Notes under the pieces: model-generated | Databases searched by the model: none | What the model saw: only the letters and a program-made list of their open reading frames with translations | What the model was told of the DNA's origin: nothing | Assembly: GCA_963848135.1 (NCBI GenBank) | Contig: CAWKCK010000018.1 | Coordinates: 696,938-760,937, forward strand | From: an uncultured delta proteobacterium | GTDB taxonomy: Bacteria; Desulfobacterota; Desulfobacteria; Desulfobacterales; SG8-13 | Length of the DNA: 64,000 nucleotides | Reading direction: 5' to 3' | Made by a program: the position numbers and the translations under genes | Shown here: positions 35,071 through 54,645 of the stretch, piece after piece | Numbering within the stretch: position 1 is the stretch's first letter | Layout: every line of letters begins with the position of its first letter

Positions 35071-38000
35071 TCATCCGCATGCTGCCTTAGACGACTCTAT
35101 TTTTTCCTGTGGAGCAATTTTCGTACCACGATTGAGCCGAAATTCCTTTAAACCGCAGTAGAGTACCGGCACCACCAGCATCGTTGCAATTTCAAAGGCC
35201 ATACCTCCGAATGTGGGGATCGCCATGGGAACCATGATATCCGATCCGCGACCGGTCGAGGTCAAGACCGGCAGGAGTGCCAGTAGCGTTGTGGCCGTGG
35301 TCATAAGACACGGTCGCACCCGCCGCAGGCTGGCCTTGATGGTCGCCCGCCGGATGTCCTGGACGGAATTAATACTTTTTTGCTCATAGGCACCGTTCAA
35401 GTAAGTGGCCATCAAAACGCCATCATCCGAGGCGATCCCGAAAAGAGCGATAAACCCGACCCAGACGGCCACGCTCAGGTTGATTGGCTGCACCTGGAAC
35501 AGCTCACGCATGGAAGTCTCGAAGATGGAAAAGTTGAGAAACCACGGCTGACCGTACAGCCATATCATGATAAATCCGCCGGCCCAGGCCACGGCCACCC
35601 CTGAAAAAACAAGCAGGCTTGTTGTCAGGGATTTGAATTGGAGATAGAGGATGATAAAGATGATCGAAAGGGCCAGCGGCAATATCAAGGCCAGCTTTTT
35701 CCCGGCCCGAACATCGTTTTCGTAATTTCCGGTAAAGCTGAAACTGACTCCAGCGGGAAGCTCCAGATCTCCGTAGGTAATGCGATCCAGCAAATACTCC
35801 TGGGCCTCCTCGACAACGTTTGTCTCAGCAAACCCCGGCTTTTTGTCAAACAGCACATACCCCACATGAAACGTGTTCTCGCTTTTGATCACCTGGGGGC
35901 CGGGTACATAATTGATTCTGGCCAACTGAACCAGCGGCACCTGGATGCCATTCGGCGCCGTGACCAGCACTTTGCCGATGGAGTCGATATGGTCGCGCAG
36001 CTCCCGCATATAGCGCACCCGCACCGGATAGCGCTCACGGCCCTGAACAGTGGTCGTGATGCGTTTGCCGCCGATAGCGATCTCGATCACGTCCTGCACC
36101 TGCTGCAGATCGATACCGTATTGGGCGATGGCCCGTCGGTCGATATCGATCTCAAGATAGGGTTTACCGACAATGCGATCGGCAATAACCGAGAAAGGAT
36201 CGATGGAAGGAATCTCTCTGAGGATATTTTTCAATGCGGCGGGTTACCTGTTTCGATCGTGTGCAGGTCGGGCCCGTAGACTTTCACTCCCATATTGGCC
36301 CGGATGCCGCTTTGCAGCATGACGATTCGGGCGGAGATCGGCTGGAGTTTGGGGGCCACCGTGGTGCCCCGGAAGCGTGGCCGCCTTGACGATTTCAGTC
36401 CCAGATGTCGTCCGGTTTGTCTGATTCCCGGCCATGACGTCGGTTGGGGTTCAAGGCGGGATCCAATGCCGGACGCCAAAGCCGAAACGGTCTGGCCGTT
36501 GGGATCGGGGATCAGACGGCTGTCTTTCGTCCCGTTCAAAGCGGCCCTGGACATGGTAAGGATTCGCCGTCATGCGGCCGGGAGAGGCCGGCCGTCCGGA
36601 GCCGCGAAAAAGATCGAGCTCATGCGGGCTGAAACCGAAACGGTCCGGGTTGCCATTGCCGCTCAACCAATAAATACTGCGGCCGATAGTTGATCAGGGT
36701 CTCAATCATGGATATCGGGGCCGGGTCCAGTGGGCTTTCGACTCGGCCCAGTTTACCCACCGCTGATCTCCACCTCCGGAATGGCTGCCAAGGCCCGGTC
36801 CTGACGCTGCAGGATATCCAGAACTTCACCGATAGAGGCGTGCGGCATGGTCACCGGCATGTAAAGGTAGGCGCCCTCATCCAGCGGAGGCATAAATTCT
36901 TTGCCCATGCCGGGAAACTGCCTGGCGAGATGACGTGCCGGGGCCGAATCCGTAAACAGTCTGGGCAGCCACCCGAACAACGGTGTCGTAGCCCTGCCAG
37001 ACAAGACCGCCCAGAATCAGAAGCCCCACAGGGATAGACAAAAAAGCCGTCTTATGATCCAGGCACCACCCCAATATCCGGTCGTAATAGTGTTGAAAAA
37101 CCCGAAAAGCGACCATAATTCCGCCGATGAGCACCGCCACAAACACAAAATTACGGATGGCACTCTTTTCATAGCCCAGCGGTTGCCAGAAACCGGTCAA
37201 AAAACAGGCTACGCCAATGGCCACCAGGCCACTATTGACAGTGGGCATCCAGCGCTTGAACCGATCGGAGACGAAGGCGTCAGCAGGTTGTATACTGCCC
37301 ATAAAAAGCCACGAAAAGGCCCGCGCGCCAGTCGAAAATAATGGCCAGCACGCCGCCCAGATAAATGAGTCCTTCGTAGAAGATCCAGCCATATTTTTTC
37401 TGCCGGCCCGGCTTGCGTCTGAAAAGAGCATAGGCCAGGGGCGGGATGAGACACAGGGCCACGAACAAGGAGGCCAGCAGGGCAAACGTTTTGGTAAATG
37501 CCAGCGGCCTGAAGAGTTTACCTTCCGCCGCCGCCATGGTAAAGACCGGCAGAAAGCTGACGATGGTGGTGGATACCGCCGTCAAGACGGCGCCGCCCAC
37601 CTCCCGAGATGCCCGCAGAACGGTTTCCAGGCGATCTTCTTCGGGTGACGCCGCAATTCCAGATGCCGAAAATATTTTCGGTGATGATGATTCCCATGTC
37701 CACGATGGTGCCGATGGCGATCGCAATGCCGGAAAGGGCCACGATGTTGGCATCCACCCCGAAGATTTTCATGGCGATGAAACAGAGAGAACCGCCAGCG
37801 GCAGCAACCCTGAAATCAGGATCGAACTGCGCAGATGCACCATCATCACGATGATGACGATAAATGATAATCAGCATTTCGTTGGAAAGCGCCGAACTAA
37901 GGGTGCCCAGTGTTTCGTGGATCAAATCGGTGCGGTCGTAAAACGGGACGATACTGAACCTGGCTGACCGTGCCGTCCGCAAGGGTCCGTTTCGGCAGGC

Positions 38001-39012
38001 CGAGGGAAATTTCCTCGATCTTCTGTTTGACGTCGCTGATGACATCCAGCGGGTTTTCCCCGTAGCGCACCACGACCACACCGCCCACGGATTCAATGCC
38101 GCCCTTGTCCAGGGCTCCGCGACGCGCCGCCGGACCGAGAGAGACATTGGCGACATGTCGGATCAGAACGGGTGTGTCATCGACGAGTTTAATGACGGAA
38201 TCTTGGATGTGCTCCAGATTTTTTATAAATCCGAGGCCCCGGATAACATACTCGACCTTGTTGACCTCGATGGTGCGCGCCCCGACGTCCACGTTCGCCC
38301 GACGGACGGCATCAACCACCTCTTCGAGGCGTACATTGCGATAACGCATCCGATCAGGATCAACATCAATCTGATATTCCTGAACGAAACCGCCCACCGA
38401 CGCCACTTCGCTGACACCCGGAACGGCCATCAGGGAATAGCGGACATACCAGTCCTGAATGGTGCGCAGTTCATGAAGATCCCAACCGCCGACCGGCTGC
38501 CCCTCGGGATCGAAGCCTTCCAGGGTGTACCAGTAAACCTGTCCCAGGGCGGTCGCATCCGGCCCGATGGTGGGTTTGACACCTTCAGGCAGTTCGCGTG
38601 CCGGCAGGCTGCTCAGGTTCTCCAGAACCCGGGTACGAGACCAGTAAAAATCAATGTCTTCGTTGAAGATCACGTAAATCAGGGAGAAACCGAACATCGA
38701 ATAACTTCGCACGGTTTTCACGCCCGGCAGTCCCAACAGCGACACGGAAAGCGGATAGGTGATCTGGTCTTCCACGTCCTGGGGCGAGCGACCGATCCAC
38801 TCGGTGAAAACAATCTGCTGATTTTCCCCGATGTCCGGTATGGCGTCCACCGGCACGGGATCGCGCCACATTCCGCCCAGCTGCCAGTCGAACGGCGCCA
38901 CCACCAGACCCCAGCCGATAACGATCAGAGTCGTCAATAAAACAATCACCCGGTTTTGCAAACAAAACCGGATGATGAGGTCGAGCCAACTCTCTCCAGA
39001 TTTCTTCAGCAT
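35071..39012 (-). pseudogene. cusA: CusA/CzcA heavy-metal RND efflux pump, multiply frameshifted between ~36230 and ~37960
   Basis: PVDAIPDIGENQQIVFT, GPDATALGQVYWY, IVPFYDRT, ALSGIAIAIGTIVD, EGKLFRPLAFTKT, EFMPPLDEG and RVRPCLMTTATT motifs, spread over many frames. Confidence 0.88.
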
Positions 39013-39211: not shown

Positions 39212-39943
39212 TTATTCATCCAACAGCAGAAAGGGAACACCCGGTATCGCCTTGCCCGCCGTAGCGGGCATCAGACCAAGACTGAAATCATCCGCGCCAA
39301 TAACTTTTTCATCCCCGGTTTTTCCCTCTGTTTCCCGAATTTCAAAAGTGCTAAACCCCGCAGTGTCAATTACTCCGAAGAACTTGTGTGCGGCCGTGAC
39401 GACACCCTGGTCGCCGAAATCGACCGGGTTGGCTTCGTTGCCATCCAGAACAAAAAGTATATTACCACCAGCAGTACCGGTAATCCAGGCACCAACGCCG
39501 AAAAACGGACTCGCTCCTTGTGCGGCCGTCCCCTTGATCCCGTCATGCTGGAAACATTCAGGCGGCACGGACTCTACGTCACATAAAAGAATGGAAGTCT
39601 GGCGATCCGGGTCTCCGTGGGGATCGGACAACAATCCCCACAACCCCGTTCGCACGGGTCCACCACCGGTCTTTATCCGGTTCGCTGTAAAGTTGGAAGT
39701 CCACACGATTCCCGATCGGGTCACGCTGGCAACCGTCAACGGTGATCGCGAAGACCCCCATGCAGCATCATCTTCGAAACCCTCCTGTAACGTACTGACG
39801 CTAAGGTTGGTCAGCGCATTCAGGTAGGCGGCCTCATCGGTATAAACAGTCATTTCGGCCGAGGCCGGCGCAGTCTCCCCGAATGACAGCGTTGCCACGA
39901 CGAGAAAGGTCAACGACCAATAGGTCATCAGATTATTTTTCAT
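39212..39943 (-). CDS. Secreted protein with a short hydrophobic C-terminal motif (IPGVPFLLLDE)
   Basis: Signal peptide. Its ATG overlaps the cusB stop (ATGA). Confidence 0.75.
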   Translation of the reverse strand: MKNNLMTYWSLTFLVVATLSFGETAPASAEMTVYTDEAAYLNALTNLSVSTLQEGFEDDAAWGSSRSPLTVASVTRSGIVWTSNFTANRIKTGGGPVRTGLWGLLSDPHGDPDRQTSILLCDVESVPPECFQHDGIKGTAAQGASPFFGVGAWITGTAGGNILFVLDGNEANPVDFGDQGVVTAAHKFFGVIDTAGFSTFEIRETEGKTGDEKVIGADDFSLGLMPATAGKAIPGVPFLLLDE

Positions 39944-41679
39944 TCTTTCGCCTCCCTGTTACGGTCATGCATGCGCCGCTTGTTTTCAACGGGTTCACTT
40001 CCGGCATCCATAGGCATGGTCTCTGAAGCGCCAGTATGTTCATGATTGGCCACCGGCTTTTCCACAGTCGAATCGATTGGCATGGCGTGTGGTGCAGTGG
40101 CCTCCGGCCGAACCCTCTCTTGAATCTGCATGTTGTGCCCATCTGCTCCGGTCGCATTCATTTGTTGCGCACCACCGTGATGATGACCAGCGCCTGCCTG
40201 CCCTCCCCCCGGTTCCATCATGCTTGGCTTGGCGAGAATCTGAACCGCACTGTCAATTTTGAAGTTTCCGTTGACCACCACCCTTTCACCCTTTTGTAAC
40301 CCGGCCTTGACGACGTAATAGCCTTTGGCCCGCGGTCCCAGTATCACCTCGCGTGGCTCGTAAATTCCTGCCTCTTGGGGGATCTCCACGTAAACAACTG
40401 CCCTTGTGCCCGTGATGAGGGGTGCAGTTTCGGGTATCACGAGCGGGGCTTTCGCGCGGCCTTGCCGGCCGGGTATCTTGACGCCTTCCGCGGTCAGCTG
40501 TGCCTGCAGTGAACAGCGCACGAGCATGTTCGGCTTCAAACGTGCCTTGGGGTCCAGGTAAAGCACCCCGACTTTGAAGGTCCGCGTATTCGCATCAAAG
40601 TAAGGGTCGAGGTAGGTCACTTTTCCTTCAAATGTTTCTCCAGGGAAAGCGTCGGTTTCGAATTCCGCCGTCTGGCCGATCCGTATCCAGGGAAAGTCCG
40701 ATTCGTAAGCATCGAGCCGCGCCCACATGTATTTGGGATTGGCAATATTGAAAATCGTCTCGCCGGTGTTCACGTAAGACCCTTTGAATGCATACTGTTC
40801 GAGAACGATACCGGTGATCGGGGTGATGACCGTCGAAACCCCGGTGGGGCGACCCCGGGCCATGACATCGTCGATATCCTTTTTCTCCAGGCCCAAAAGC
40901 ATCATTTTGCGTTGAATCTGGTCTAGCTTTTTTAGGGCAGCGGCTTTTTTCTCGTCGACCTTGCCAGTTTCGTCCTTGGCCGTCAATCCCTTGCGGTAAG
41001 CCGGTCGCATCAGGCGCCGGTATCGCTGTCCCCGGGAAGGCCGGTAGTCGAGCGAATCGGGAAACAGCTTCAGCACTTCGAAAAGCTCCTGCTCCAGAAA
41101 GAAAAGTTCGGAAGAATGGATATCGAAAAGCGGATCACCCGTTCTGACACTCTGCCCGGCACGCTTGACATAGATGCGGTCAATAATGCCCGGCGCAAAA
41201 GCGGTGATCATGTACTGCTCGACCGGATCGTATTCGATTTTTCCGAAAAGCCGAACTTCGGTCGTGACGAACTTCTCTTCTACCGGAGCTGTCAAGATGC
41301 CGGCCCTTCGTATGGTCTCTTCCGGGAACCGGATCCTGTTTGGACCCGATTCATGGCGGTGCTCCTGTGCCAGCGCTTCCACCAGCTCCATCCCGCAAAC
41401 GGGACAATCGCCGGGAATTTCCATGGGAGGAACGCAGTTCATCGGACAAACGTAGATCCGTTCGTCCACGGTCGTTGCTGGTTCAAACGGCAAGGGTCTT
41501 GAATCAGAATCGGCTGTTGCATCCGCCGCGGCCGGCACGCCGGTGACTCTCGATTTGTCATCAGTACCGCTATTGTTCAACCCGAACCCGACACCGACAC
41601 CCAGGATCAACGCCACCAGCACCACAACCATGTATTTTTTATTCTCTATAAATTTGAATGATTCTTTCATGACAACCAT
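39940..41679 (-). CDS. cusB: CusB-like RND periplasmic adaptor with a heavy-metal-binding domain and His/Met-rich tail
   Basis: YVCPM...CPVCGMEL, PITGIV, YLDPYFDANTRT, LKPNM, GNFKIDS and GHHHG motifs. Confidence 0.9.
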   Translation of the reverse strand: MVVMKESFKFIENKKYMVVVLVALILGVGVGFGLNNSGTDDKSRVTGVPAAADATADSDSRPLPFEPATTVDERIYVCPMNCVPPMEIPGDCPVCGMELVEALAQEHRHESGPNRIRFPEETIRRAGILTAPVEEKFVTTEVRLFGKIEYDPVEQYMITAFAPGIIDRIYVKRAGQSVRTGDPLFDIHSSELFFLEQELFEVLKLFPDSLDYRPSRGQRYRRLMRPAYRKGLTAKDETGKVDEKKAAALKKLDQIQRKMMLLGLEKKDIDDVMARGRPTGVSTVITPITGIVLEQYAFKGSYVNTGETIFNIANPKYMWARLDAYESDFPWIRIGQTAEFETDAFPGETFEGKVTYLDPYFDANTRTFKVGVLYLDPKARLKPNMLVRCSLQAQLTAEGVKIPGRQGRAKAPLVIPETAPLITGTRAVVYVEIPQEAGIYEPREVILGPRAKGYYVVKAGLQKGERVVVNGNFKIDSAVQILAKPSMMEPGGGQAGAGHHHGGAQQMNATGADGHNMQIQERVRPEATAPHAMPIDSTVEKPVANHEHTGASETMPMDAGSEPVENKRRMHDRNREAKE

Positions 41680-41954
41680 TTACAAATGGAAAAGTCCCTA
41701 CCATAACGGCCTTATCGGTCGACAGTATCAAGCCGCAACAACTGATTATACCATAGGGCCACCGAATTAAAAGGGTCTTTCGACATGTTGCAGGCAGAAA
41801 ACGACTGTTTGACGTCTTCAAGCCTGTGATGAGAAAGTTTTCCGGCGGATACCGGCCGTCGGGAGATCGGAAGGTGTGTATCGCGGGCCATCAATGATCA
41901 GACTGCTGATGAAGGCTGAGGTTCGGCGTGGACCATGTCGCCACCGTCCCATCC

Positions 41955-43454
41955 TCATTGGGAGGCATTGCGGCCGAATCCGTAGGCAAATGCGGCCAAA
42001 TATCCGTTGGTGGCTGCGGCGGAGTATACCGCCAGGTCATTGCCGTCCACATCCCCGTCCCCGTCGCTGTCAAAGGGTGATCCGACATGGGTCAGCAACC
42101 AATCGTAGGCGGACATGGCATTCAGCAGACCGTAACCGTACGAGTTGTCCGGACCGGGCGTTCCCAGGTCGACAGCACTCTCTTTCAAGGCCTGAAGCAA
42201 CTGGCTGACAGAAGTGCCTGTCATGGTACCGCCCAGCAGAGCCAGCGCACCGACGACGTGGGGCGCAGCAAAGGATGTTCCGGTTTCAAATATATAACCT
42301 GCGCCAGGATGGGCCGTACAGACGCCAACACCGGGGGCCGTTACATGCGGATAAACGCTGCCGTCATAACTCGACGGGCCGCGGGAACTGAAAGAGGCAA
42401 TATTGAGGTCCCAGTCCACAGCCCCCACGGCGAAGCTTCCGGGATCGTTGGCCGGGCTCACGTCGCCGTCGGTGCCGGAGTTGCCCGCCGCAAACACCAC
42501 CGCGATCCCGGTGTCATTGAGCGTCTGGATATCGCCTCTGAACTCCGTGTTATATGAGCCCTCGGTGCCAATTATATACCATGAGTTGTTGACGATGTCG
42601 GGAAAGTCCGGCGTGTTTGGGTTGCCGTCCGGGTCAAGGAGCCACTCAAACCCCTGGTGTAACAAACTAACCGTTGATTGACGAGCCGCATCGAAAACTT
42701 TGACCGCGATCCACTGGGCACCGGGCGCAACACCGATGGCATAGCCTGAGGCATCTCCACCGACGATGATCCCTGTGACCTGGGTGCCGTGGCCATTATC
42801 GTCATAGGGTTCTGTATTATTTCCGTTGACAAGATCCTTCCAGCTGTTGGATCCGTCGCGGTACCTGGATGCGATGTCGGGGTGGCCGCCGTCGGCACCC
42901 GTGTCCATGACGCCCACCACGCTCCCGGCCCCGTTGTAGCCAAGAGCCCACAGCTCGGGAACGCCCACATCGAATATGTTATCTCCACAATTGATTCCCG
43001 CGGTTCCGCCCAAACCAGCCACGACCGGCTCCGGCGGCAGGGTGACAACCGCATCCAGCGTCACCCGCTCGACCGTAGGCAGGTTAGCCAGCTCATCCAC
43101 CAGCGAAACCGGCACCCGCGCGGCAATGCCGTTGATTATCCATAGCGACAGGGGATTTTTGACCTTGTTATCCTTGAGAAACGTGAGAATATCCTTCTGG
43201 TCGCGATCCTTACGTTCGATGAGGGCCTTAATGATTTTGGAACTGCGAACGGCCTTATCCTTGTCGCTGAAGCTCTTCAGATTCACCGTTTCAGTAAGCC
43301 GGATGATAACCGGCACCTCCGCCTCGGGCGCAAGTGTCCTGACAGCGTCTTGCACGTCCGGTGCCACCACGCCGGCCATTGCAGCACTCGCCGCCTGTAA
43401 GGCGAGCAACAGCCCGGTTAAAACGGTCAGTATCTTTTTCAACATTCTCGGCAT
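41955..43454 (-). CDS. Secreted S8 subtilase with propeptide and a C-terminal dockerin-like Ca-binding motif
   Basis: Catalytic triad MDTG, HGTQVTG and GTSFAAPHV. C-terminus FDSDGDGDVDGNDLAVY...FAYGFGR. Confidence 0.93.
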   Translation of the reverse strand: MPRMLKKILTVLTGLLLALQAASAAMAGVVAPDVQDAVRTLAPEAEVPVIIRLTETVNLKSFSDKDKAVRSSKIIKALIERKDRDQKDILTFLKDNKVKNPLSLWIINGIAARVPVSLVDELANLPTVERVTLDAVVTLPPEPVVAGLGGTAGINCGDNIFDVGVPELWALGYNGAGSVVGVMDTGADGGHPDIASRYRDGSNSWKDLVNGNNTEPYDDNGHGTQVTGIIVGGDASGYAIGVAPGAQWIAVKVFDAARQSTVSLLHQGFEWLLDPDGNPNTPDFPDIVNNSWYIIGTEGSYNTEFRGDIQTLNDTGIAVVFAAGNSGTDGDVSPANDPGSFAVGAVDWDLNIASFSSRGPSSYDGSVYPHVTAPGVGVCTAHPGAGYIFETGTSFAAPHVVGALALLGGTMTGTSVSQLLQALKESAVDLGTPGPDNSYGYGLLNAMSAYDWLLTHVGSPFDSDGDGDVDGNDLAVYSAAATNGYLAAFAYGFGRNASQ

Positions 43455-43549
43455 TTGTCACTCTGGTCCGTAGCGTTGTCTCCGTCAGCGGTATCCGTGA
43501 TCTGAAGGACTTTTTTCGGTACCGGAGAAGTCTTGTTGCCGACTTTTCT

Positions 43550-44020
43550 TTATTCAACAGTGATGTTTTCCAGCCTAAAGTCGCCAATCACCACCGTAAC
43601 CTTATCCCCTGGTTGCACCAGGCGGGTCTTGTTACCAAAAAACATCCAGTAGACGCGGCCCTCCTGAGGCGTATCGGAGCTGCGCAGAGGTCCGACCTTG
43701 GCCGTTACCGGCACCTCCAGGACCTTGCCGCTTTCCTGGTGAATCAGATACGGTTTGGTATCACGTTTGAAGAGCGCCACCGCCTTTTCGGCATCCAGCA
43801 CCCGGTAGCGGAAGTCGACCATGCTACCGGCCGCGGTGGTGCGTACGGCCACGATGTCAACCCCCCATTGTTTCTGCAGGGTGGCCCGCTTATCAGGCCC
43901 GCTTTGCGGACCGGTCGCACAACCGGCCAGAAGGAGCACCAGGGTACAAAAGAGCAGAACCCATACCGTACGCCCTGTCGTCATCAGCTTCATCGATCTC
44001 ATCTCCGCCTTCGGCTTCAC
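43550..44020 (-). CDS. Putative lipoprotein
   Basis: Lipobox LLAG-C and a beta-rich body (MVDFRYRVLD...YWMFFGN). The true start may be 43996 or 43984. Confidence 0.8.
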   Translation of the reverse strand: MKPKAEMRSMKLMTTGRTVWVLLFCTLVLLLAGCATGPQSGPDKRATLQKQWGVDIVAVRTTAAGSMVDFRYRVLDAEKAVALFKRDTKPYLIHQESGKVLEVPVTAKVGPLRSSDTPQEGRVYWMFFGNKTRLVQPGDKVTVVIGDFRLENITVE

Positions 44021-44083
44021 TCCTGACGGGAAGACAGAGCCGGATGCGACTCTGTCTTCTTTTTATCGTAATATTTATATATA

Positions 44084-45199
44084 TTATTGACAGATCGAAC
44101 CAAAGTTCAGAGCAAACACGTCAAGTGCCGGTATCACGCCAGGTCCGAAGATCGCTTCATACCTTTCAAGGTCCGTACCGTCCACGTCCAGGTCGCCGTC
44201 AAAATCACCCGGGCAGGAAACCTGCAGCAGAGCCAGCAGACCGCCTTCGCTCGATGCTCCGGAGACCAGGTGGTGGCTGCGGTCGAAGATCGGGAATGTG
44301 CCCTGTGCCGTCGGATCCCAGAGGGCATCCATCGTTTTGCCCGGGGCCAAATTCACCATGTACTGCTCTTTGGCATAGGGATAAGGATGGCCGTCCTCGG
44401 CAATCACTTTCATGTAAGGACCGTTCAGGATCAAGGGCATGTAAGACTTGAGCCCGATGTTCGCGAAACGGATGAGCGTTCTCGCACCCGGAAACCCTGC
44501 CGGCACCGGTGAAGCGGGTGCATCGAATGGCTGACCGTTGATCAGAAAATACTTCGGGCTGTAGGTCCGGGGTCGCGCCACTTGCAAGGAATCAGGATCA
44601 TTATTCAAAGCCGGGTCGATCTCACTGTAGAGCAGGAGGGCCTCATTATTATAAGCGAATGCTGCACCGGCAGCGGGATCGGGATAGGCCTCACCGGGGG
44701 CATTATCCACGATGATGGCACCGTAGAGCCCCATGGGCACCTGCCGTCCGGGATTGGTGCCACTATGATAAATGAAAGTACCCGCGTTGAGGCCGGTCCA
44801 ACTGTAAATCCCCGGAGTCGCAGGAAACGGATCCGTTTCCGTCGTGAACGACTGGACCCGACCGGTGGGCGGTACGGGTGTTCCCGTTGCGACCTGCCCG
44901 GGAATCATGATCGAGACCGGTACACTTAAGCAATTGCGCAGGTTGATTGTCAGCGATCCGTCGGTGGGCCGCAGCACCGGTCCCGGCGTCCAGGGGGAAC
45001 CAGGGGCGGGGCAGCTACCCGGATCGTCGACAAAGCCCCACATACGGATTTCATCGCCGGCCGTTCCGCCCGGTGGCAACCACTGAGTTTCCACTGCTGC
45101 AAGTTCGAATACCTGGGCAACAGAGGGACTCGCTACAAGAACGGCGCAGATTATCGCCAGCACCGGTAGCATCGCGTGCATTAAAATGGTTTTCTTCAT
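44084..45199 (-). CDS. Two-domain multicopper-oxidase-like protein C (copper ligands largely lost) with a C-terminal dockerin-like motif
   Basis: PGPVL, SIMIPGQ, GTFIYHSG...MGLYGAIIV, YFLING and RFANIG motifs. C-terminus CPGDFDGDLDVDGTDL...FALNFGSIC. Confidence 0.85.
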   Translation of the reverse strand: MKKTILMHAMLPVLAIICAVLVASPSVAQVFELAAVETQWLPPGGTAGDEIRMWGFVDDPGSCPAPGSPWTPGPVLRPTDGSLTINLRNCLSVPVSIMIPGQVATGTPVPPTGRVQSFTTETDPFPATPGIYSWTGLNAGTFIYHSGTNPGRQVPMGLYGAIIVDNAPGEAYPDPAAGAAFAYNNEALLLYSEIDPALNNDPDSLQVARPRTYSPKYFLINGQPFDAPASPVPAGFPGARTLIRFANIGLKSYMPLILNGPYMKVIAEDGHPYPYAKEQYMVNLAPGKTMDALWDPTAQGTFPIFDRSHHLVSGASSEGGLLALLQVSCPGDFDGDLDVDGTDLERYEAIFGPGVIPALDVFALNFGSICQ

Positions 45200-45218
45200 C
45201 TCGTTATCCCTCCTTTAC

Positions 45219-46698
45219 CTAATCTATATCCACATTCCAGCCTTCGATGATCAGCATGGTCAGCATGCCACCAGGGAAGATGTCGAAGTTTGTCAGCTCC
45301 TTTTCCGTGTGGGAATGCCACATGTAGCTGAAGCCGCCGTTGGGGTTGAGACCGCCTTCGCCCGGAGGCAAGGCCCCCATACTACCGAGAAACGGGCTGC
45401 CGCCGTACCAGCCGCCGAAGGCCAGATCCAGTTTCTGGGGCAAAAGGGTCGGGAACATGCTTATCGTGGTCGTCACAGTATTCCCATGGTGTGTCTGTGC
45501 CCGGATCTCCGTATCCGTCAGGAGGGGCCACCCCGGTTTCATTGTCCACCAGATCGGTACAGTCGTGGGGAAGAGGGGGGTCGGTGGCGAACTGGGGGTC
45601 ATCTGATACACCGTAGATGTCCCAGTTGAGGCCCTTGCCGGTCCATTCGAAGATGGCGTCTACGGTCTCCCCCGGCACCGAGTTGATGGTGAAAACCTCG
45701 AAGCTCAGGTCCGGAAAAACTCCAGCCGCGGGTGGCCCTCCGGTGCCCGTATCGAGCAAGCGACCGTCCCGGGCAATGACCCGGGCGTGGTTCCCGTGGT
45801 GGTGAAAGGGGTGCATTTCACGGTTGCCGCCGATGACCCGCATCAGCATTCGTTCGCCCGGATGCATTCGCGGCAGGGAGTTGTAGGGCTGGTAGAGCAG
45901 CAGCGAACCCGCGCTCTCACCGGCATTGCCCATGTTATCCGGGGCTGTCCGCCCATTCATGAACCAATATTTGGAAAAATAATCCGACAGGGCGTCGGTT
46001 TCCATCAGCTCGGGGGCATCCGGCCCGTAAGCGAACACCGTCTCGTGGATCAAGGGGTCCATCTCGCTCAACAGGAACAAAAACTCCCTGTCATATTCGG
46101 TGCCGGGGCCGTAAGCCGTGCGGTTGGTATCCGGATCGAAACCGGCCGGCCGAATGATCAGCGCCCCCAGCAGCCCCATTTCCACCTGCAGTTCGGGGCG
46201 GGTGCCGCTGTGGTACATGTACGTGCCGGGGTGGGTAGCCGTAAACGTGTAAGTTACCGTGCCACCCGGTGCGGCCTCGTTCGTCATTAGTCCGGGCACC
46301 CCCGGATCCGCTGTCTCAACGGTCACCTGTTGACCTGGGAAAACGATCGACACGTTGGGCGTTGCACCAGTGAAAAGGTTCAACTCGTTGGTCAATCGAA
46401 TCTTTACCGTTTGACCCTGTTCGACGATCAGGGTCGGACCGGGGTACTGAGGCCGATTGGCGTTGCTGGGCGGGGCCAATGTGTCGGCGTACCCCCAGAA
46501 AACCACCGATCCGCCGTCAGCGGTGGAGATGGCATTCATCTTGACGGTCAAGTCGAATGTTACGGGATCGGTAGGCGTTCCCGCCCCTGTCCCCGAGATA
46601 CCGTCAATAGCGGCGGTCGCGCTCCCTGCCAACAGGAAAAGGAGCACGGCCGCCCATACGAAGAGGCTATGTGAATTTGAAAACAGTTTATATTTCAT
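45219..46698 (-). CDS. Two-domain multicopper-oxidase-like protein B, with one frameshift near 45458
   Basis: YPGPTL, GTYMYHSG and HPFHHHGNH in one frame. The C-terminus FPTLLPQK...MWHSHTEKE...PGGMLTMLII continues in another frame after ...HDK. Confidence 0.8.
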
Positions 46699-46714
46699 GG
46701 CAGTTCTCCTTTTC

Positions 46715-48010
46715 TTATGGCGAAATTCTGATCTCGGTCAGCATGCCGCCTATACCGTCATCCGTCTCTCCGTTGACCAGGAAATTCAGGTCGGTGGCGT
46801 ACAGAAAATGTGTACCGGACATTCCGGTGGTGTCGAGAATCACATCGTAGGACATGCCCCCGCCGAAGGTCAGCGAATGGGTGGTGTATGACAGGTCTAT
46901 GCCGTCCGGTCCGCGCAGCAGCTTGGCGTCCTTGCCCACCACCCGCATGGGGATTCCCGGGCTGGCCAGGGTAAAATAGCGCGTGACTTCCAGGTTGGAG
47001 AGGCGCAGCAGGACCCTGTCTCCGGCCGCGGCCTCTATCAGGGCATTTACCTTTTGGGTACTGAAACCATCAAGTGGTCTGGCCTCGGGCGGTGCAGCCG
47101 GCCCGACCGGAGCAACCGTGTCCGGATAGCCGCGGCCGTTGATCATGGGGTAGTCGGCACGCATCAGGGCAAAGGGCAGCGGCTGTGTGTTTACACTGGC
47201 ATCATGGAAGTCCGAGTCGAAACCGCCGAGTTGGAGGACAAACTCGACATCGTAAGCGGTGGAACCGTCCCCGTCGTTGTAAACATAACCTGTGGGGCCG
47301 GGGCCGCCTTCCTTGCCGGCGACGGTGTTCGGATCACCGCCGAAGCCGGTCTGATTTTGGATCGGGTCCACGTATAGACTCCCTAACATACCCATCTGCA
47401 TGTGTTCGGTGGCCTCCACATGGCAGTGGTACATATAGGTGCCGGGATCGTTGTTCAGGTAGTAATAGGTCAGGCTGGCCCCCATCTTGATGGAAAGACC
47501 GCTCTCCGGCAGTCCGTCATAGATGTTGGAGGACTGGGGAAAACCGTGGTAATGCACCGTGTGGGGGTCGAAAAGATCCGGTCGGTCCACCATACCCACG
47601 TTGCTCAGGGTCAGCCAAAACACATCGCCCTCGCGTAGGGCTATCTGCGGTGCCGGAAACTCGTGCGATAATTGGCCATCGATGAACACATTGTCCGCGG
47701 GAATGCCGGTGACATCCGAAAACCCGAACATGTACATCGGGCGTCCATCGCCCATGGTAATATAACCGTCCCCCGACGACAGGTGCATGCATTTGACATT
47801 GGGATCAAAGTCTGGGTTGGGATCTCCAACCAGGATCCCATCAGGATTGGGATCCGGCAGGGTATGAGCCTCATAAACGGGATCCGGAACGGCGTCCCCG
47901 TCGAGATCCCCCTGACACTGGACCGAGATGGCCGCCCCGACTGGCAGGGTGCCGAACATCACCACCAGTAGCAGTAGGAGCGGCAGAAGGTAGCGCCTGT
48001 ATGTTTCCAT
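46715..48010 (-). CDS. Two-domain multicopper-oxidase-like protein A with a complete type-1 Cu site
   Basis: HTVHYHG and GTYMYHCHVEATEHMQMGM in domain 1. No HxH motif in domain 2. Confidence 0.9.
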   Translation of the reverse strand: METYRRYLLPLLLLLVVMFGTLPVGAAISVQCQGDLDGDAVPDPVYEAHTLPDPNPDGILVGDPNPDFDPNVKCMHLSSGDGYITMGDGRPMYMFGFSDVTGIPADNVFIDGQLSHEFPAPQIALREGDVFWLTLSNVGMVDRPDLFDPHTVHYHGFPQSSNIYDGLPESGLSIKMGASLTYYYLNNDPGTYMYHCHVEATEHMQMGMLGSLYVDPIQNQTGFGGDPNTVAGKEGGPGPTGYVYNDGDGSTAYDVEFVLQLGGFDSDFHDASVNTQPLPFALMRADYPMINGRGYPDTVAPVGPAAPPEARPLDGFSTQKVNALIEAAAGDRVLLRLSNLEVTRYFTLASPGIPMRVVGKDAKLLRGPDGIDLSYTTHSLTFGGGMSYDVILDTTGMSGTHFLYATDLNFLVNGETDDGIGGMLTEIRISP

Positions 48011-48083
48011 GGGTTGACTCCTTTCTATTCTGTTTCAGCCGCACCGGGGATGGCCCCCGGTTGCGGCGGTTTGGTCTCTACTG

Positions 48084-51000
48084 TTACGGTATCTGTAATT
48101 CGTCGGCACCCCAGTCGGAATTTCCCCCGGCGGGGAAAGGCCGCGGCTCATTGTCGATATCCACGGAAAGTGCGCCAGGGACGTTCGTGGGGCCCGCATT
48201 CTGAGCCGTCGAAACGCCAGTGATGTGGTAGTCGCTGCACATCCCGGGATTACCGTCATCAGGAGTTGCGTCGTCACACAGGGTCAGCGGGCCGAAACGC
48301 ACCCGGATGAAATTGCCGCCCTCGTCGAACGCCGCCGGTGTCGAAATCAAGGTTGTCGGCTCGCCCGGCAAGAGGGTTTCACCACGCCCGCCGTTAAAAT
48401 ATTCCATTACAAACGCCGGGTTGGCGATGCCAGCCTCGTCCTGATTGTTGGCGACGTAGGTGCACTGAGGTTGATCCTCAAATCGACTCGTCAGGATATT
48501 CCTTTGCGGGTTGAGACATCCCGCCGTACCCAGGACAGCCAGGTCGTCGTACGGGTTCGCCGCTGGAATCAAGGAGTACGGCGGGGCGGCTGGATCGGGT
48601 GGATCGGTTGGGGGAGTTTCGCCGTAGTAGAATGAGCGATTGTGCCAGATAATGTTTTCTGTCAGTACAGGGTCGGGATTATCCGAATTGCAAAACCGGC
48701 TCGTACTGCCCGCATCGGCACAAGCCGCCGCCACTGCCGGACCCAATCCAAGAAGACCCAGAGCCGGGTTATCCTGGCTGTGGGCGCGTGCCACGATGCC
48801 GGCCGGTTGCGGGGTGGAAGTAAATGTGGCAAGGTCGATGGCGTTGCCCGACGTGGCCGTGCTGTCGTTGTTGGCCACCACGTTGAAGCGTATCCGCGCC
48901 TTGGCGACATCTTGGAGCGAAATGCCGCCGCCGGCCAGAGCCGCTACATTGTTGACGATCATGTTGCTGTAAATATTAACAGCTTTCCAACTGCCCGGAG
49001 CGCCGCTCACGTCCTGGCCGTTGACCCGACTCAAGCGGATGCCGCCGCCGTCTCCGACGCCGGCCGAATTACTCTGGATCAAGTTGCGGAAAATATTCAC
49101 GTTGCCCGTCCCCGGGCTCAGGGTGTTGGCCTCCAGGGGCAGCTTACCGCCGACGAAAATACCGCCGCCGCTGACGGTCAGCCCCTGGTTGAACTGTTCG
49201 TTGAAAAGGATCTTGTTATCGGCGATAAGGCCGTTATTGCTCTCCCCAAAGTGGCCGATACCGGCCCCGTCTCCCAGGGTGAAATTGCCGCAGATCCAGT
49301 TCGCGCTGACGTTGTACCTCGTCGAACCGGTGCACAACGACACCCCGCCGCCGGCGCCGCCCAGGCCGCCGTTCTGGGTGATCTGGTTGTGGTGAATCCT
49401 GACATTATCATTGTCAGCATCCGTATGGATCTCTAATTGGGTATCCGGGTCGATCGTTGTCAATTCGGGGTGGCCCAAACGCACACCACCGGCGTAGAAT
49501 CCGCTGTTATTCAGGATAATATTGTTACCAATATCCATGAACTTCGCATAACCGTTGGCAATGATGCCGCCGCCGGTGCTCGCGCCGCGGATGGTAAAAC
49601 CGTCGATCCGCGCGCCGCGATTAACCCAAGTTGACTGGTTTCGAGCGAACCGGTTGGGTCCGGTTGCCTTGGCCAGCACCAGCACACCGGCCCCCTCCTC
49701 GGTAAACAGGGTGCCCGGTTCGACACCGCCGAAGGCCTGCTCCTGACCAGGCAGCAGATCCACCTCAAGGTCTTCGACCAACTGCCTGAGTTTCTGACGC
49801 CAGAATTCCAATTTCTCCATGGGCGTGTTAATGGCGTTGATGGTGACCACGCCCGGCCCCCAGCCCTGGAGCTGGACGGGTTTGTGCATGATGACCATTT
49901 CTTCGTAGTTGCCGGGTCCCACCAGGATGAGGTTGTTGATCCCATCGTTGAACCCAGCCGCATCGATGGCCTGCTGAATCGGCCCGAGGCCATCGGCATT
50001 CGGCGGCCCCGGTGTCACCTGTACGACGTTTGAACCCGGCCGCAGACCCACCTGGACCGTCAACCCGGTGATGGTGGTCTGGTTGTTGTCGCCGCGGGTC
50101 ACCATCAACTGTTGGCCGCCAGCGTCGAGCCCGGCCGGTATCGTGGCCGTAATGGTGGTGTTCGACCAGGTCACATCCAACGGATTCAAGGTGACATCGC
50201 CGATCGACACGGTCCCCTCAGTACCGCCGAAACCGTAATCGCGGTTGATAGTAGTGGGCTCGGTACCACCCACGCCGTCATAGATTGGGTTCGGTACGGA
50301 GACTGACCCCATGGACGTAATGTCGATTGTCTGCCCGCCCAAGGTGTTGGGGATGAAAGGACCGCCGCCGACACCGTTGTCGACCGTTGCCATGCTGATC
50401 CGCGGTGTCCCGTCCGGAAACTCGCAGTCGAGCGGGGCCTGGTCGGGCCCGGCAAAGGCCGCCGAGGGAACCACAGGGGTATCAAGATACGTGGTCGCTC
50501 CGGGCATGTACTGGAAAGTGTAGCAAAACGTGCTGTACTGCGGGTTGAATAACGGATCGTCAATAAACATGCCCGGATCGGCTGGATCGGGTTTCCGCGG
50601 GTGGTTCATGCAGGTGGTCAGCATGTTGGGTGACATGCCGCTGGGTTGCGGCAGGTTATTGGTGTAGGTGGAGGGCACCAGGGCGTTGAAGCGCCCGTAC
50701 TCGTCGGAATAGGTGCGTGAGATCTCCCGGCCGGTCCAGTCCTGAATCGATATCGGCATGAAGGGTGGCGCGAACTTCTCGCCGAACTGGGGCGAGGCGG
50801 GATCGAACTCGTTGGCGGTGTCGTCCAGGATACCGCCGACGATGTGGCCCGCTATCGGCACCTCGGTGAACAGGAAGAAATCGGCCGCAGCGTTTTGAGC
50901 GGGGTTAAGAAAGACCTGCTTGCGGTCGCACAAAGGCCTGATGGTGCCACCGAAGTCGGAGCCGACCGGCTCGCCCGGAAACAGCGTCAGCTCAGCCGGA

Positions 51001-53558
51001 ACCGGATGGTCGTCACCCACACATTCCGGTGCCACCAGTAGCGGGCTGGGGGTGTATTCGTCGCCGAAATCGACGTTGCGGTCTTCCTCCTTAACGATCT
51101 CGTAACCCGGAGGGGTTTTGACCTCGACGATATAAAACCCAGGTTTCATGACGCCATAATCGGGATTTCCAGTGCCGTCGGGTTGTTGAATCCAATTAGG
51201 TATCACACCTCCAAAATCTTCCGAAATGCTGTACTCGGGTCCGAAGGCGTAGCCGCCGTCGAACACCCCCGGTCGCACCTGGTTCCAATTGCGCATGCCG
51301 TCGTAGCAGTCGGTGGCCTGACCCCGGAAGACATAAGGATCATCGGTGCCGCTGCCGGCGTTGACCCCGTATTGGCAGTTTGCGGGCAGGCTGTCGTCCC
51401 AGCTGTCGGTCCAGGTGACCTGAATGGCGTCATTTTGATCGAAAGTCGCGTTAGCTGGAACAGAATTTTCGAAATCCTCCGGTCCCATAGCGCCACCGGC
51501 GGACCATTCAAAAGGATAGTTGTCCACATCGGCAAGCTGGATGCCATTTGGCGAAACATCCTGGTCTAGGATGTTACCGGCCCCGTCGCTCTGGTACAGG
51601 TTGATCTGCACCCGCGGGATGCCGGGCTCCCAGGGTTCGACCGCCGCGAGGCGCGGGTCGTCCTCGGCCCGGGTGGTGGCATAGTAGACCACGCCTGAGA
51701 CGCCGCCGGTTTCGCTGAATTCGTAGAGCTTCTTGCCCCATATCATGACGCTGGTCTGCCCCAGGAAACCCTGGAAGCCTTCGACCAGAGCCGGGCCTCT
51801 CTCGATCCGGTAAAGATCCGTATTGGGTGCCATCGGCCACCAACTATCGGGATCCTCTGGATTGCCTTGGACCTGGGGGGTGAGTTGACCGCCGAATGTC
51901 CAGTAGCTCGCCGGGCCATCCTGCGGAATCGGGCCGCCGTCGTCCACGACAACCATCACGCCGGTGGCCTTGAAACGCGCGAAATCAACCTCGGCCGTCA
52001 GCCAGGAAAAAAATGGAAAAACCTGGTCGAAGGGCGCGAAACCATCGCCATCGGTGGGAAACGATTGGTAGAGCGTGCCGTCGCGCCAGCGCAGGTTCAC
52101 CGCCTGTTCGAGAATCGGCGGCTGCGACGCCAATCCGGTTTCGCCCGGATTCCATAATCCGTTGCCGTCAAGGTCGTTGAAGACGTGATTCTCCAGGCGG
52201 GTGAACCACTGAAAGACCCCAATATCTCCCAGGTCACAGTCAGGGCTGCACGTACCATCGGGGTTGACCGTTATACCCTGAAACGCAAAAACCACATCGA
52301 GATTGTCGTCCCACACCATGAGCTGGTAGTCCCCCGGCGGTACATTGGGGATCGTAAATCCGCCTCCGTCCGTCCGCGCGGCGTAAATACCGTTGGAAAC
52401 CGCTGCCAGGCCGGCGTTGTCGTTCAGGCCGACCCAGGGTGTCGTGTGGGTCAAAGGGGCGCCCAAGTTGAAGGCACCACCGGCATAGGGGGGGCGGGAA
52501 AGGTGGTTATTGACCACGCTACCTGTGATGCTGGCCGTCGTATCGCCGGCAGGAATGTCGTTGAACGGTTCGACAAAGCCAATAAAGACATGGTAGCCCG
52601 GCGGCCCGAACTCGGCGAAAAACGGCGGCTCGTTGGCCTTGACCCAGGCGTCGATCACTTTCGTGCCCTCAATGGTGGAGGTCTGCTGCCAATTGGAACC
52701 TGCCGGCGGCGACGCGAGGATGCCGTACTTGCCCGGGGCCAGGTTCTTGATCGTGATCAGCCCGGTGGCATCGGTGACCAGGGGTTCGAAACCGGTCACG
52801 TTGCCGGCCGCATCATATTGGGTTCCCAGGGGGTTACCGAAGGCGTCGAAGAGCTGTTCACCGGCCGATGCGCCGTAACGGCCGCCGGCGTCCTCCACCT
52901 TGATCTGGAAGCCCGCCAATCCCGGCTCCGTCGCATCGGGCGCGTTGTTGATCGGCTGGGTGTCTTTGAATATGAAAATGGTGATCTGGGCCGTGGGTAT
53001 CGGGTTTTGATTGAGGTAGACGGCAACATCTCCGGTGTCACTGCCTTTAAATTGGCCACCGCCGATGCTGTAGGTACCCGGATCCTTTGGCAGGACCGAA
53101 ACGAAGTAGTGTTTGGCGGGGTTCAAACACGGAAAATCGGTAACTGGATCCGTGCAGACCGGCGGAAAGGCTGTCGCATCATCCCCCTTGGCCACCACAG
53201 GCATGTAGCTGCGGTGAAAACTGGTTGAAAGGGGGTACGGCTTGGGAGTGACGGTTGGCGGGACATTTTTCGAGGGGTTATCCAAATGGTGCCAGTTGGG
53301 ATCGACCACCGGAAAACCGTCACCATCCAGTTGCACCTGGCCGCTGGCATCACGCTGAACGTGATAGGTCGCGTCCTCTTCGATCACCCAGCGGTAGGTT
53401 GTGACGGGTGACAGGGATCCGTCCTTATCGACGCCCGTAACGGTCAGTGTCGGCACCGCCATCACTGTGGCGGCAGAGCACACCAAGAAAATGGAGACGA
53501 GCAGCACAAGCCAAAGCCTGCCAACCCCGGTTGAATTTATGTTGATCACCTTCTTCAT
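48084..53558 (-). CDS. Large (1824-aa) secreted protein with SdrD-B/Cna-like, IPT/TIG-like and parallel beta-helix regions
   Basis: RBS aaggagg and signal peptide. VFNDLDGNGLWNPGETGL, NLAPGKY, WSNTTITATIP, IQQAIDAA...GPGNYEE, IDGFTIRG and repeated N...GGGI motifs. Confidence 0.85.
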   Translation of the reverse strand: MKKVININSTGVGRLWLVLLVSIFLVCSAATVMAVPTLTVTGVDKDGSLSPVTTYRWVIEEDATYHVQRDASGQVQLDGDGFPVVDPNWHHLDNPSKNVPPTVTPKPYPLSTSFHRSYMPVVAKGDDATAFPPVCTDPVTDFPCLNPAKHYFVSVLPKDPGTYSIGGGQFKGSDTGDVAVYLNQNPIPTAQITIFIFKDTQPINNAPDATEPGLAGFQIKVEDAGGRYGASAGEQLFDAFGNPLGTQYDAAGNVTGFEPLVTDATGLITIKNLAPGKYGILASPPAGSNWQQTSTIEGTKVIDAWVKANEPPFFAEFGPPGYHVFIGFVEPFNDIPAGDTTASITGSVVNNHLSRPPYAGGAFNLGAPLTHTTPWVGLNDNAGLAAVSNGIYAARTDGGGFTIPNVPPGDYQLMVWDDNLDVVFAFQGITVNPDGTCSPDCDLGDIGVFQWFTRLENHVFNDLDGNGLWNPGETGLASQPPILEQAVNLRWRDGTLYQSFPTDGDGFAPFDQVFPFFSWLTAEVDFARFKATGVMVVVDDGGPIPQDGPASYWTFGGQLTPQVQGNPEDPDSWWPMAPNTDLYRIERGPALVEGFQGFLGQTSVMIWGKKLYEFSETGGVSGVVYYATTRAEDDPRLAAVEPWEPGIPRVQINLYQSDGAGNILDQDVSPNGIQLADVDNYPFEWSAGGAMGPEDFENSVPANATFDQNDAIQVTWTDSWDDSLPANCQYGVNAGSGTDDPYVFRGQATDCYDGMRNWNQVRPGVFDGGYAFGPEYSISEDFGGVIPNWIQQPDGTGNPDYGVMKPGFYIVEVKTPPGYEIVKEEDRNVDFGDEYTPSPLLVAPECVGDDHPVPAELTLFPGEPVGSDFGGTIRPLCDRKQVFLNPAQNAAADFFLFTEVPIAGHIVGGILDDTANEFDPASPQFGEKFAPPFMPISIQDWTGREISRTYSDEYGRFNALVPSTYTNNLPQPSGMSPNMLTTCMNHPRKPDPADPGMFIDDPLFNPQYSTFCYTFQYMPGATTYLDTPVVPSAAFAGPDQAPLDCEFPDGTPRISMATVDNGVGGGPFIPNTLGGQTIDITSMGSVSVPNPIYDGVGGTEPTTINRDYGFGGTEGTVSIGDVTLNPLDVTWSNTTITATIPAGLDAGGQQLMVTRGDNNQTTITGLTVQVGLRPGSNVVQVTPGPPNADGLGPIQQAIDAAGFNDGINNLILVGPGNYEEMVIMHKPVQLQGWGPGVVTINAINTPMEKLEFWRQKLRQLVEDLEVDLLPGQEQAFGGVEPGTLFTEEGAGVLVLAKATGPNRFARNQSTWVNRGARIDGFTIRGASTGGGIIANGYAKFMDIGNNIILNNSGFYAGGVRLGHPELTTIDPDTQLEIHTDADNDNVRIHHNQITQNGGLGGAGGGVSLCTGSTRYNVSANWICGNFTLGDGAGIGHFGESNNGLIADNKILFNEQFNQGLTVSGGGIFVGGKLPLEANTLSPGTGNVNIFRNLIQSNSAGVGDGGGIRLSRVNGQDVSGAPGSWKAVNIYSNMIVNNVAALAGGGISLQDVAKARIRFNVVANNDSTATSGNAIDLATFTSTPQPAGIVARAHSQDNPALGLLGLGPAVAAACADAGSTSRFCNSDNPDPVLTENIIWHNRSFYYGETPPTDPPDPAAPPYSLIPAANPYDDLAVLGTAGCLNPQRNILTSRFEDQPQCTYVANNQDEAGIANPAFVMEYFNGGRGETLLPGEPTTLISTPAAFDEGGNFIRVRFGPLTLCDDATPDDGNPGMCSDYHITGVSTAQNAGPTNVPGALSVDIDNEPRPFPAGGNSDWGADELQIP

Positions 53559-53668
53559 CTTGTGTCCTCCTTTCATGAAGGAAAATTTGACGTCAACTTG
53601 TCTGGTGACGGATATCGACCCGAATCATTATTCATCAGGGTTCTCGACTTAGTATTCGATACTGAATA

Positions 53669-53684
53669 GGCAATTTTCATACCA
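53669..53684 (-). promoter_or_regulatory. sigma54 promoter of the large-protein/MCO operon
   Basis: Minus strand TGGTAT-GAAAA-TTGCC, with CCCA-N3-TGGG palindromes at 53786 and 53846. Confidence 0.75.
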
Positions 53685-53901
53685 CAATGTGTAGCGGTAA
53701 CATTGGTGATTGATTTCAAGATGTTAGGACAATGACGGTGGATTTTGGCCCATTCTTGTCGACCGTATCCCCTTCGACGTTGCCTCCCAATTTGGGAGGC
53801 CAATGTTAAATTATCATTTAATTATAATCGTTTAGGTTAACATAGCCCACATTGGGATGATGTCTCCCGACGTCTATTTGCGACCGCGAAGATCAGCGTC
53901 T

Positions 53902-54252: not shown

Positions 54253-54394
54253 TCTTTCTTTCCCCGTGGCCCAATGGAATGGACTCAAGTTGTCCAATTT
54301 GGTATTCAATGCCGCGAATGGACATAAGGCCCAATGCTGACCGGCGGCCAGCAAGCGATCTTTGTTAAATGGGTTTCAATCGAAAAGGTAGGAG

Positions 54395-54410
54395 AGCAAA
54401 AGATGTGCCG
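54395..54410 (-). promoter_or_regulatory. sigma54 promoter of the PilZ-like gene
   Basis: Minus strand CGGCAC-ATCTT-TTGCT, with upstream palindromic sites at 54510 and 54571. Confidence 0.7.
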
Positions 54411-54645
54411 AATAATGTTAATTTGAATTAATACAATGTTTTCAGAAAATTACAGATTAGAGCCAGATACGAAACGGGATATGCGCCGCGGCGCACGCTA
54501 AGAAGCTCTCCCATTACGGGGCGCCCAGATAAAATTAATATTAATATTTCAGTCAGTTGGAATGAAACCGGCCATTGTGGGACGGTGCGCTTTAGCCGCT
54601 CATTGTGGGGAGAACGCCCGTGGGCGACGATCGGCCCACAAAACA

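Follow-up and report, generated by a model that had tools for sequence, protein, structure and literature searches.

A multicopper oxidase active site predicted to be shared between paralogous subunits of a conserved bacterial gene module

The window analysed here is a 64,000-nt stretch of DNA from an uncultured delta proteobacterium (GTDB order Desulfobacterales, SG8-13; contig CAWKCK010000018.1 of assembly GCA_963848135.1, positions 696,938–760,937). Three adjacent genes on its minus strand, here called A, B and C, encode two-domain multicopper oxidase (MCO) paralogues over which the copper ligands of a single active site appear to be distributed. A, B and C are probably the subunits of one heteromeric two-domain MCO (we put the probability at about 0.7), with a composite site at the A/B interface. 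The genes, and the ligand motifs of A, are located as follows.

46715..48010, minus strand: subunit A, a two-domain MCO paralogue of 431 amino acids (aa) with a Sec signal peptide
47546..47563, minus strand: motif HTVHYH of A (aa 150–155), a type-1 His and one His pair
47387..47428, minus strand: motif HCHVEATEHMQMGM of A (aa 195–208), HCH-x5-H-x4-M, containing the His-Cys-His and the type-1 His and Met
45219..46698, minus strand: subunit B as a whole, between A and C, split by a frameshift in the window
44084..45199, minus strand: subunit C, a ligand-free two-domain paralogue of 371 aa with an Asp-rich C-terminal tail

In the proposed arrangement domain 1 of A would supply the blue type-1 copper site (His150, Cys196, His203 and Met208) together with four of the histidines of the trinuclear cluster, and domain 2 of B would supply the other four. 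The single O2-reducing centre would lie only at the contact between A domain 1 and B domain 2, where the His-Cys-His of A would connect it to the type-1 site. The ligand-free C most likely closes a pseudo-threefold A-B-C ring and keeps the enzyme at the cell surface, either by its own tail or by way of the giant beta-helix protein encoded next to the trio. The Sec-exported subunits make up one conserved module together with the giant protein, a small lipoprotein and an S8 protease, and would probably be released by type II secretion. We infer the physical assembly, the 1:1:1 stoichiometry, the order of subunits in the ring and the oxidase activity from the sequences. Candidate electron donors are, at a guess, Cu(I), Fe(II), Mn(II) or another metal ion, or else a surface-bound substrate.

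Copper ligands of the three paralogues

Each of the three proteins matches MCO cupredoxin families of Pfam (Cu-oxidase_3, Cu-oxidase_2 or Cu-oxidase) above the cut-offs, the domain matches covering both halves of A and C and domain 1 of B. Three tandem open reading frames (ORFs) are confirmed on the minus strand at the coordinates given in the preliminary description of this DNA. The best PDB sequence matches of A and B are 3G5W (the blue copper oxidase of Nitrosomonas europaea) and 2ZWN (the metagenomic mgLAC), and the Pfam matches taken together with alignments to both domains of 3G5W give two cupredoxin domains per chain. In the type A/B/C naming of two-domain MCOs, the 3G5W-like enzymes are those that we take to be type C. 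Identification as a CopA- or CueO-type resistance oxidase was rejected (52–62 bits against a cut-off of 479 for the NCBIfam model TIGR01480, and 23 against 525 for CueO), and scores for a laccase or a nitrite reductase are likewise far under the NCBIfam cut-offs for A, B and C.

The ligands are most simply followed from domain 1 of A. HTVHYH aligns to PHTIHWHG of 3G5W, and with the second motif it completes a type-1 site comprising H150, C196, H203 and M208, and a set of four trinuclear-cluster histidines comprising H153, H155, H195 and H197. Downstream of the HCH motif A has no HxH, and its domain 2 is free of ligands; the motif content ascribed to A in the preliminary description is therefore found as stated. 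B has the complementary pattern. Its domain 1 is ligand-free, with SIVFPGQ (aa 117–123) and YHSG (aa 162–165), while its domain 2 contains HPFHHH (aa 296–301; 45796–45813) and WHSH (45309–45320), the last of these in a second ORF. No HCH and no conserved His pair is present in C. By profile and by sequence, A matches the domain-1 motifs of 3G5W and B matches both of its domain-2 HxH motifs. A is the only one of the three with a His/Cys/His/Met type-1 site in domain 1, and neither in the window nor in 70 related operons does A, B or C carry all eight trinuclear histidines on one polypeptide. As a control, the same genome encodes two ordinary MCOs, with the four motifs in one chain in each case.

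Counted over A, B and C, the ligands in these sequences allow exactly one trinuclear site. By the same count neither a homotrimer of A nor a homotrimer of B could hold a trinuclear cluster. The trio is read as one single-centre oxidase because trimers of A only or B only hold no cluster, and the contact between A domain 1 and B domain 2 would hold exactly one.

Solved two-domain MCOs are homotrimers with the trinuclear cluster located between two subunits, in the part of PMC11761707 that was available. The trio resembles 3G5W and 2ZWN in its two cupredoxin domains, in the placing of the type-1 site in domain 1 and in the need of two subunits for a trinuclear site, and also in the order of the motifs, with H-x-x-H-x-H and H-C-H...H...M in domain 1 and H-x-x-H-x-H-G and H-x-H in domain 2. 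It differs in that these enzymes form three complete sites from one gene product, whereas here the domain-1 and domain-2 ligand sets are on different products and a third product has none. As the ligand sets are divided over A and B with none on C, at most one site would be formed per A, B and C. Since the eight histidines are not all on one chain, the trio is not an ordinary two-domain MCO.

The six-domain MCOs of ceruloplasmin type are single polypeptides with type-1 sites in the even-numbered domains and at most one trinuclear cluster (PMC3600357, as far as its available text goes). Like ceruloplasmin, hephaestin and the bacterial six-domain MCOs described there, the trio has six cupredoxin domains in total and no more than one cluster at three possible interfaces, so that the rule of not more than one trinuclear site per six domains given in that text holds here also; in both cases sites have been lost after triplication. 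Unlike them it is encoded by three separate genes and has one type-1 site, in a first domain. A polypeptide containing all six domains was not found among the best 150 representatives; only four-domain fusions, of B and C, were found. The split trio is thus a parallel route, and not a member of the six-domain family.

Two further systems may be compared. Nmar_1354 of Nitrosopumilus maritimus (PDB 9CCK) is a two-domain MCO that crystallised as an alpha-alpha-alpha-prime heterotrimer (PMC11761707). Unlike in the trio, the asymmetry arises because one copy of the same gene product has lost an extra domain by proteolysis, and all of its subunits are fully liganded in the account given in the available text. 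Sideroxydans lithotrophicus ES-1 has three tandem MCO-coding genes that are predicted to be extracellular and have no assigned role (He et al. 2017, PMC5566968). From the available part of that paper they resemble the trio in their adjacency and in their predicted extracellular location, and their host lives in sediment or groundwater. They differ in that the paper lists a mofC-like cytochrome and a copper chaperone along with the cluster, and the available part mentions no ligand split. A family search around a Gallionellaceae metagenome-assembled genome (MAG), made for a possible link to ES-1, reached only five genomes. No description of a heterotrimeric, heteromeric or split MCO fitting the trio was found in the literature searched, supplements not covered.

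Conservation and descent of the trio

Relatives of A comprise 5886 proteins at E ≤ 0.001 among 8000 candidates scored. A scan with one genome per species confirmed 507 loci, and 80 of these were kept for study. By record label they belong to the Pseudomonadota (25), Thermodesulfobacteriota (21), Acidobacteriota (12), Myxococcota (9) and Nitrospirota (5), with one from each of four other phyla and four unlabelled, giving at least nine phyla. The gene order seen in the window, from the giant protein (big) through A, B and C to the lipoprotein (p156) and the S8 protease (S8), recurs throughout the related loci.

The 210 proteins encoded by A, B and C in the 70 operons that hold all of them were aligned, and the ligand columns were followed one by one. 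The eight domain-1 ligand columns read H, H, H, H, C, H, H, M in 70 of 70 A proteins, and V/T, V, P, H/Y/Q, S, G, Q, L in B and C. Five domain-2 histidines are kept in all 70 B proteins, at columns that are not conserved as histidine in A or C. The first of them is often histidine in C (43/70), and is the sole such column. The histidines of H-x-x-H-x-H are invariant in B (70/70), as is W-H-S-H in the B alignment. Scored as motifs, the ligands of A are present at 80/80 loci, 76 of which have no HxH after the HCH, and of 74 B ORFs 74 contain HxxHxHG, 72 contain WH[ST]H and 73 have no HCH. A divergent metagenome clade, whose A shares only ~30–42% identity with that of the window, also keeps the partition, at 8/8 loci. 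Because the pattern recurs column for column in 70 operons it is far beyond chance. Conservation of the complementary pattern in homologues was a point on which the preliminary description had staked its reading beforehand, and the outcome favours that reading, the pattern being found in 70/70 operons and at the 8/8 divergent loci.

The three genes also travel together. In a sample of 401 genomes from the phylum of the window, the three profiles singled out the same 19 genomes, where A, B and C adjoin one another, and no sampled genome had one of the three while lacking the others. At 69 loci at least 2.7 kb of sequence follows A; at 68 of these there is an intact B and then C, and at the remaining one (L004) B lies in two frames and is followed by C. 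Partition, co-occurrence and the alignment to 3G5W together support the proposal, already made in the preliminary description, that A domain 1 and B domain 2 supply one centre with one type-1 site and eight histidines.

A FastTree phylogeny was calculated from 66 rows, representing 18 loci drawn at random from the 70, three metagenome loci and the window. Each of the three paralogues falls on one side of a branch (support 100 for A, 98 for B and 93 for C), the divergent clade included. As the three clades contain the divergent loci, the triplication predates the spread of the module. Mean pairwise identities for domains 1 and 2 are 69 and 61% in A, 58 and 59% in B, and 49 and 46% in C.

Gene fusions occur in several combinations. 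Proteins in which B is fused to C are 866–1177 aa in length and fall into six clusters at 90% identity, with His motifs in the B half only. Fusions of big to A are found in many proteins of ~2100 aa, and fusions of C to big at four Acidobacteriota loci and in Cupriavidus metallidurans CH34. In other lineages A-like and B-like subunits (P0135 and P0242; ~790–830 aa) carry an N-terminal PAP2-superfamily domain, as a variant of the split system.

Interruption of B and alternative explanations

The B gene of the window is not intact. Its parts, and an interrupted gene that lies nearby, are located as follows.

45460..46698, minus strand: B before the frameshift, with the signal peptide, the ligand-free domain 1 and the start of domain 2 with HPFHHH
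45459: extra base, a single-base insertion breaking the B reading frame
45219..45458, minus strand: B after the frameshift, with the end of domain 2 and WHSH
35071..39012, minus strand: CusA-like RND pump in at least five frame pieces, ~6 kb downstream of B (context)

The ORF at 45382–46698 goes out of frame after ...DHDKH, and WHSH is in the ORF at 45219–45611, in a different frame. The preliminary description was right about the degenerate domain 1 of B and the presence of HPFHHH and WHSH, but B is not one open frame and WHSH is read in the other. Translation from 45458 gives MFPTLLPQKLDLAFGG...WHSH, where the intact homologue has ...DHNKRFPVTLPEKQDLAFGG; one base extra at 45459 is identified because reading from 45458 restores this match. 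The base is absent from contigs of three DNA runs (from two studies), which come from relatives ~95–97% alike. No run containing the exact sequence of the window was found (best share of words 0.62), so that the extra base at 45459 may be either an assembly error or a real mutation. Of the 76 related loci at which both parts can be seen, 74 have B as a single ORF. L013 (a draft genome of a cultured strain) and L004 (a MAG) have comparable single breaks in B, which may be sequencing errors. The contigs of close relatives have one extra base after 44012, at the 5′ end of the p156 ORF, and another after 48036, in the gap between big and A. The CusA-like gene at 35071–39012 is likely to be either a pseudogene or a stretch of locally poor assembly.

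Several points weigh against a single functional A-B-C oxidase. B is interrupted in the window, and the insertion would leave the enzyme, as assembled, one His pair short. Since rpoB and at least seven other RND pumps of this genome are whole while the neighbouring CusA-like gene is fragmented, the frameshift may be a true inactivating change and not an assembly error. The ring order and the stoichiometry are carried over by analogy from homotrimeric two-domain MCOs. B::C fusions are rare, occurring in two of the best 150 representatives. No fusion of A to B is present among the longer homologues listed, nor a six-domain A-B-C fusion among the best 150 representatives, though both absences are weak evidence.

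The most serious alternative is that the system is decaying in this genome, with a real frameshift in B and an oxidase that is inactive here, leaving the family elsewhere unaffected. We consider this a distinct possibility, at somewhat below an even chance. It is favoured by the absence of the extra base from the contigs of close relatives in the three runs and by the broken CusA-like pump alongside, while the whole rpoB and other RND pumps indicate that insertions and deletions are not general in this assembly. On the other side, no run with the exact sequence of the window was found in which the base could be checked, the genes for A, C, big, p156 and S8 are whole in the window, and single breaks in B, perhaps from sequencing errors, are also present at L013 and L004.

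It is also conceivable, but rather unlikely, that A and B form a heteromer without an A-B-C ring (an A-B dimer, A2B or AB2), with C acting merely as an adaptor to the giant protein. C is the least conserved subunit (46–49% compared with 58–69%) and is the bearer of the anchoring modules, both of which favour this reading. Yet C keeps both cupredoxin domains, is always present, forms an ancient clade of its own and is fused to B in one lineage, and the solved two-domain MCOs are trimers in the available text of PMC11761707. The least probable alternative is that A and B share no site at all, A being a type-1 electron-transfer protein with a vestigial half-cluster, B binding copper or another metal on its own account, and the three paralogues forming separate homo-oligomers. 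Purifying selection on all six domains (46–69% mean pairwise identity) means that each protein could have its own role, but what remains in 70/70 operons is exactly eight histidines and the type-1 set, at positions that lie opposite each other in a two-domain MCO trimer, co-occurrence and adjacency are strict for all three genes, and the B::C fusions fix a 1:1 ratio. We know of no function for a half-cluster.

The interpretation of the trio as a heteromeric oxidase is the one supported by the comparative evidence. A fuller version of it, to which we would give no better than even odds, is that of an obligate heterotrimeric MCO with its single centre at the A/B interface only, docked through C and A on the giant beta-helix protein as a dedicated secreted machine. 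Such a machine would be spread over at least nine phyla including strict anaerobes, and would be an independent replay at the level of genes of the 'one site out of three' found in ceruloplasmin-type proteins.

Gene module, distribution and significance

By the ORF list, A, B and C lie in a group of six co-directional genes on the minus strand of the window, in the order big-A-B-C-p156-S8, with gaps of 16–95 nt. The other members, and a variable neighbour, are as follows.

48084..53576, minus strand: big, secreted, 1830 aa, containing Ig/prealbumin-like repeats as well as a right-handed beta-helix; opens the module
43550..44020, minus strand: p156, a conserved 156-aa lipoprotein with lipobox LAGC, called from a GTG start
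41955..43454, minus strand: S8 protease, subtilisin-like, with an Asp-rich tail resembling that of C; last gene of the module
39940..41679, minus strand: CusB-like adaptor for metal efflux, containing a heavy-metal-binding domain; belongs to the variable context outside the core

The giant protein adjoins A, B and C at nearly all related loci. It matches the Pfam families SdrD_B, fn3_3 and SpaA, and Beta_helix is matched in a fused homologue (P0123). It contains 20 cysteines, with conserved Cys pairs, and is conserved over its whole length among homologues; it has no CxxCH haem motif, and comparison with PDB sequences gave no match. No Pfam family and no PDB relative was found for p156. The protease matches Peptidase_S8 (Pfam, E = 1e-45) and has a catalytic triad of D184, H222 and S394 (DTG184, HGT222 and GTSFAAP392).

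The tail of C contains a single Asp-rich DxDxDxxVDG loop, seen as DFDGDLDVD at 44180–44206. Loss of the ligand motifs from C, as claimed in the preliminary description, is upheld, but its dockerin-like tail is not identified as such, as the last 58 aa give no match to Pfam Dockerin_1 at E ≤ 1. The likeness to the tail of the S8 protease is weak (21/44 identical, E = 0.88). The earlier observation is thus confirmed in part, the exceptions being the frameshift in B and the unconfirmed dockerin. C has extensions of at least 90 aa at 54 of 71 loci, and A and B have none. Of the scanned extensions 45/53 are of bacterial Ig or cadherin-like type, eight contain PKD and one contains Dockerin_1. The suggestion that C acts as a tether is thereby supported indirectly, in that only C carries cadherin-like, PKD or dockerin extensions, it is fused to big at some loci, and B::C fusions exist.

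All proteins of the module have Sec-type signals, p156 has a lipobox in addition, and genes of the type II secretion system (T2SS) adjoin the module in two unrelated lineages; the enzyme is for these reasons probably secreted or bound to the surface. At the locus L137 (G222:C24:175200-193000) an S8 protease with a MopE-type metal-binding repeat is followed by a complete T2SS operon comprising GspE, F, G, H, J, K and a PilN-like gene. On the CH34 chromid (L145, NC_007974.2 1336094–1355419) GspE and a secretin precede A, B and a C::big fusion of at least 2445 aa. The CH34 oxidase genes probably adjoin the small T2SS cluster Rmet_4704–4713 named in the genome paper, the oxidase locus tags being guessed and unconfirmed.

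Outside the core the context varies, and contains CusBA (in the window and at four other loci), T2SS genes or glycosyltransferases. A CusB-like neighbour is common to L003, L119, L141 and L142. Just beyond the efflux genes of the window are two genes for copper-chaperone lipoproteins of the NosL family (33735–34214 and 34487–35080, minus strand), which are not conserved neighbours elsewhere. These two chaperones may serve in copper loading of the oxidase.

No sigma-70-like promoter or intergenic terminator was found in 41400–54500, and no Rfam family in 33000–58000. A sigma-54 promoter for big was considered and rejected: TGGTATGAAAATTGC lies ~94 nt upstream, but such a site is present at one of 59 related loci. 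Matches of sigma-54 type number nine over the whole window against 4.75 expected, which is not above chance. The −24/−12 boxes concerned, all on the minus strand, include 53670–53684 upstream of big, 54396–54410 upstream of a small ORF and 57432–57446 upstream of a dockerin-domain protein (56259–57125). The last CusA-like piece contains a further box (35114–35128) at its 3′ end, ~35 nt before the NosL ORF at 34487–35080. An NtrC-type activator (58042–59409) and a PAS/GAF sensor kinase (59813–63130) are encoded upstream. Between these regulators and the oxidase module two small proteins on the minus strand (54901–55563 and 55617–56192) have weak matches to the PEP-CTERM sorting signal (E = 0.0016 and 0.025). 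Contigs of one metatranscriptome run align to parts of A, B and C, and indicate presence in an RNA library, which is not proof of transcription; the uncovered parts carry no information either way.

The split arrangement is widespread yet uncharacterised. The module is found in sulfate reducers, in sulfur and iron oxidisers, in Acidobacteriota and in Myxococcota, and the cluster is present also on replicons of Paraburkholderia and Ralstonia. Its occurrence in C. metallidurans CH34 makes it directly testable; no functional study of the CH34 genes was found in the literature searched (under the guessed tags Rmet_4699–4704).

To our knowledge a single gene product always furnishes the catalytic cluster of an MCO, whether the cluster lies inside one chain or between identical chains. 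If confirmed, an oxidase whose one cluster requires two different gene products, with a silent third paralogue besides, would represent a new kind of quaternary arrangement. Such an enzyme would illustrate how paralogues come to depend on one another once a gene has been duplicated, and would provide a living analogue of the path proposed from trimeric two-domain enzymes to six-domain proteins. The genes carry no more than the annotation 'multicopper oxidase domain-containing protein', and each product would be inactive when expressed alone, so that surveys counting MCO genes as oxidases would over-count. The substrate could be of biogeochemical importance, for example in metal oxidation or in removal of O2 at the cell surface, and, given the groups of bacteria in which the module is found, it may bear on the cycling of metals and oxygen in sediments.

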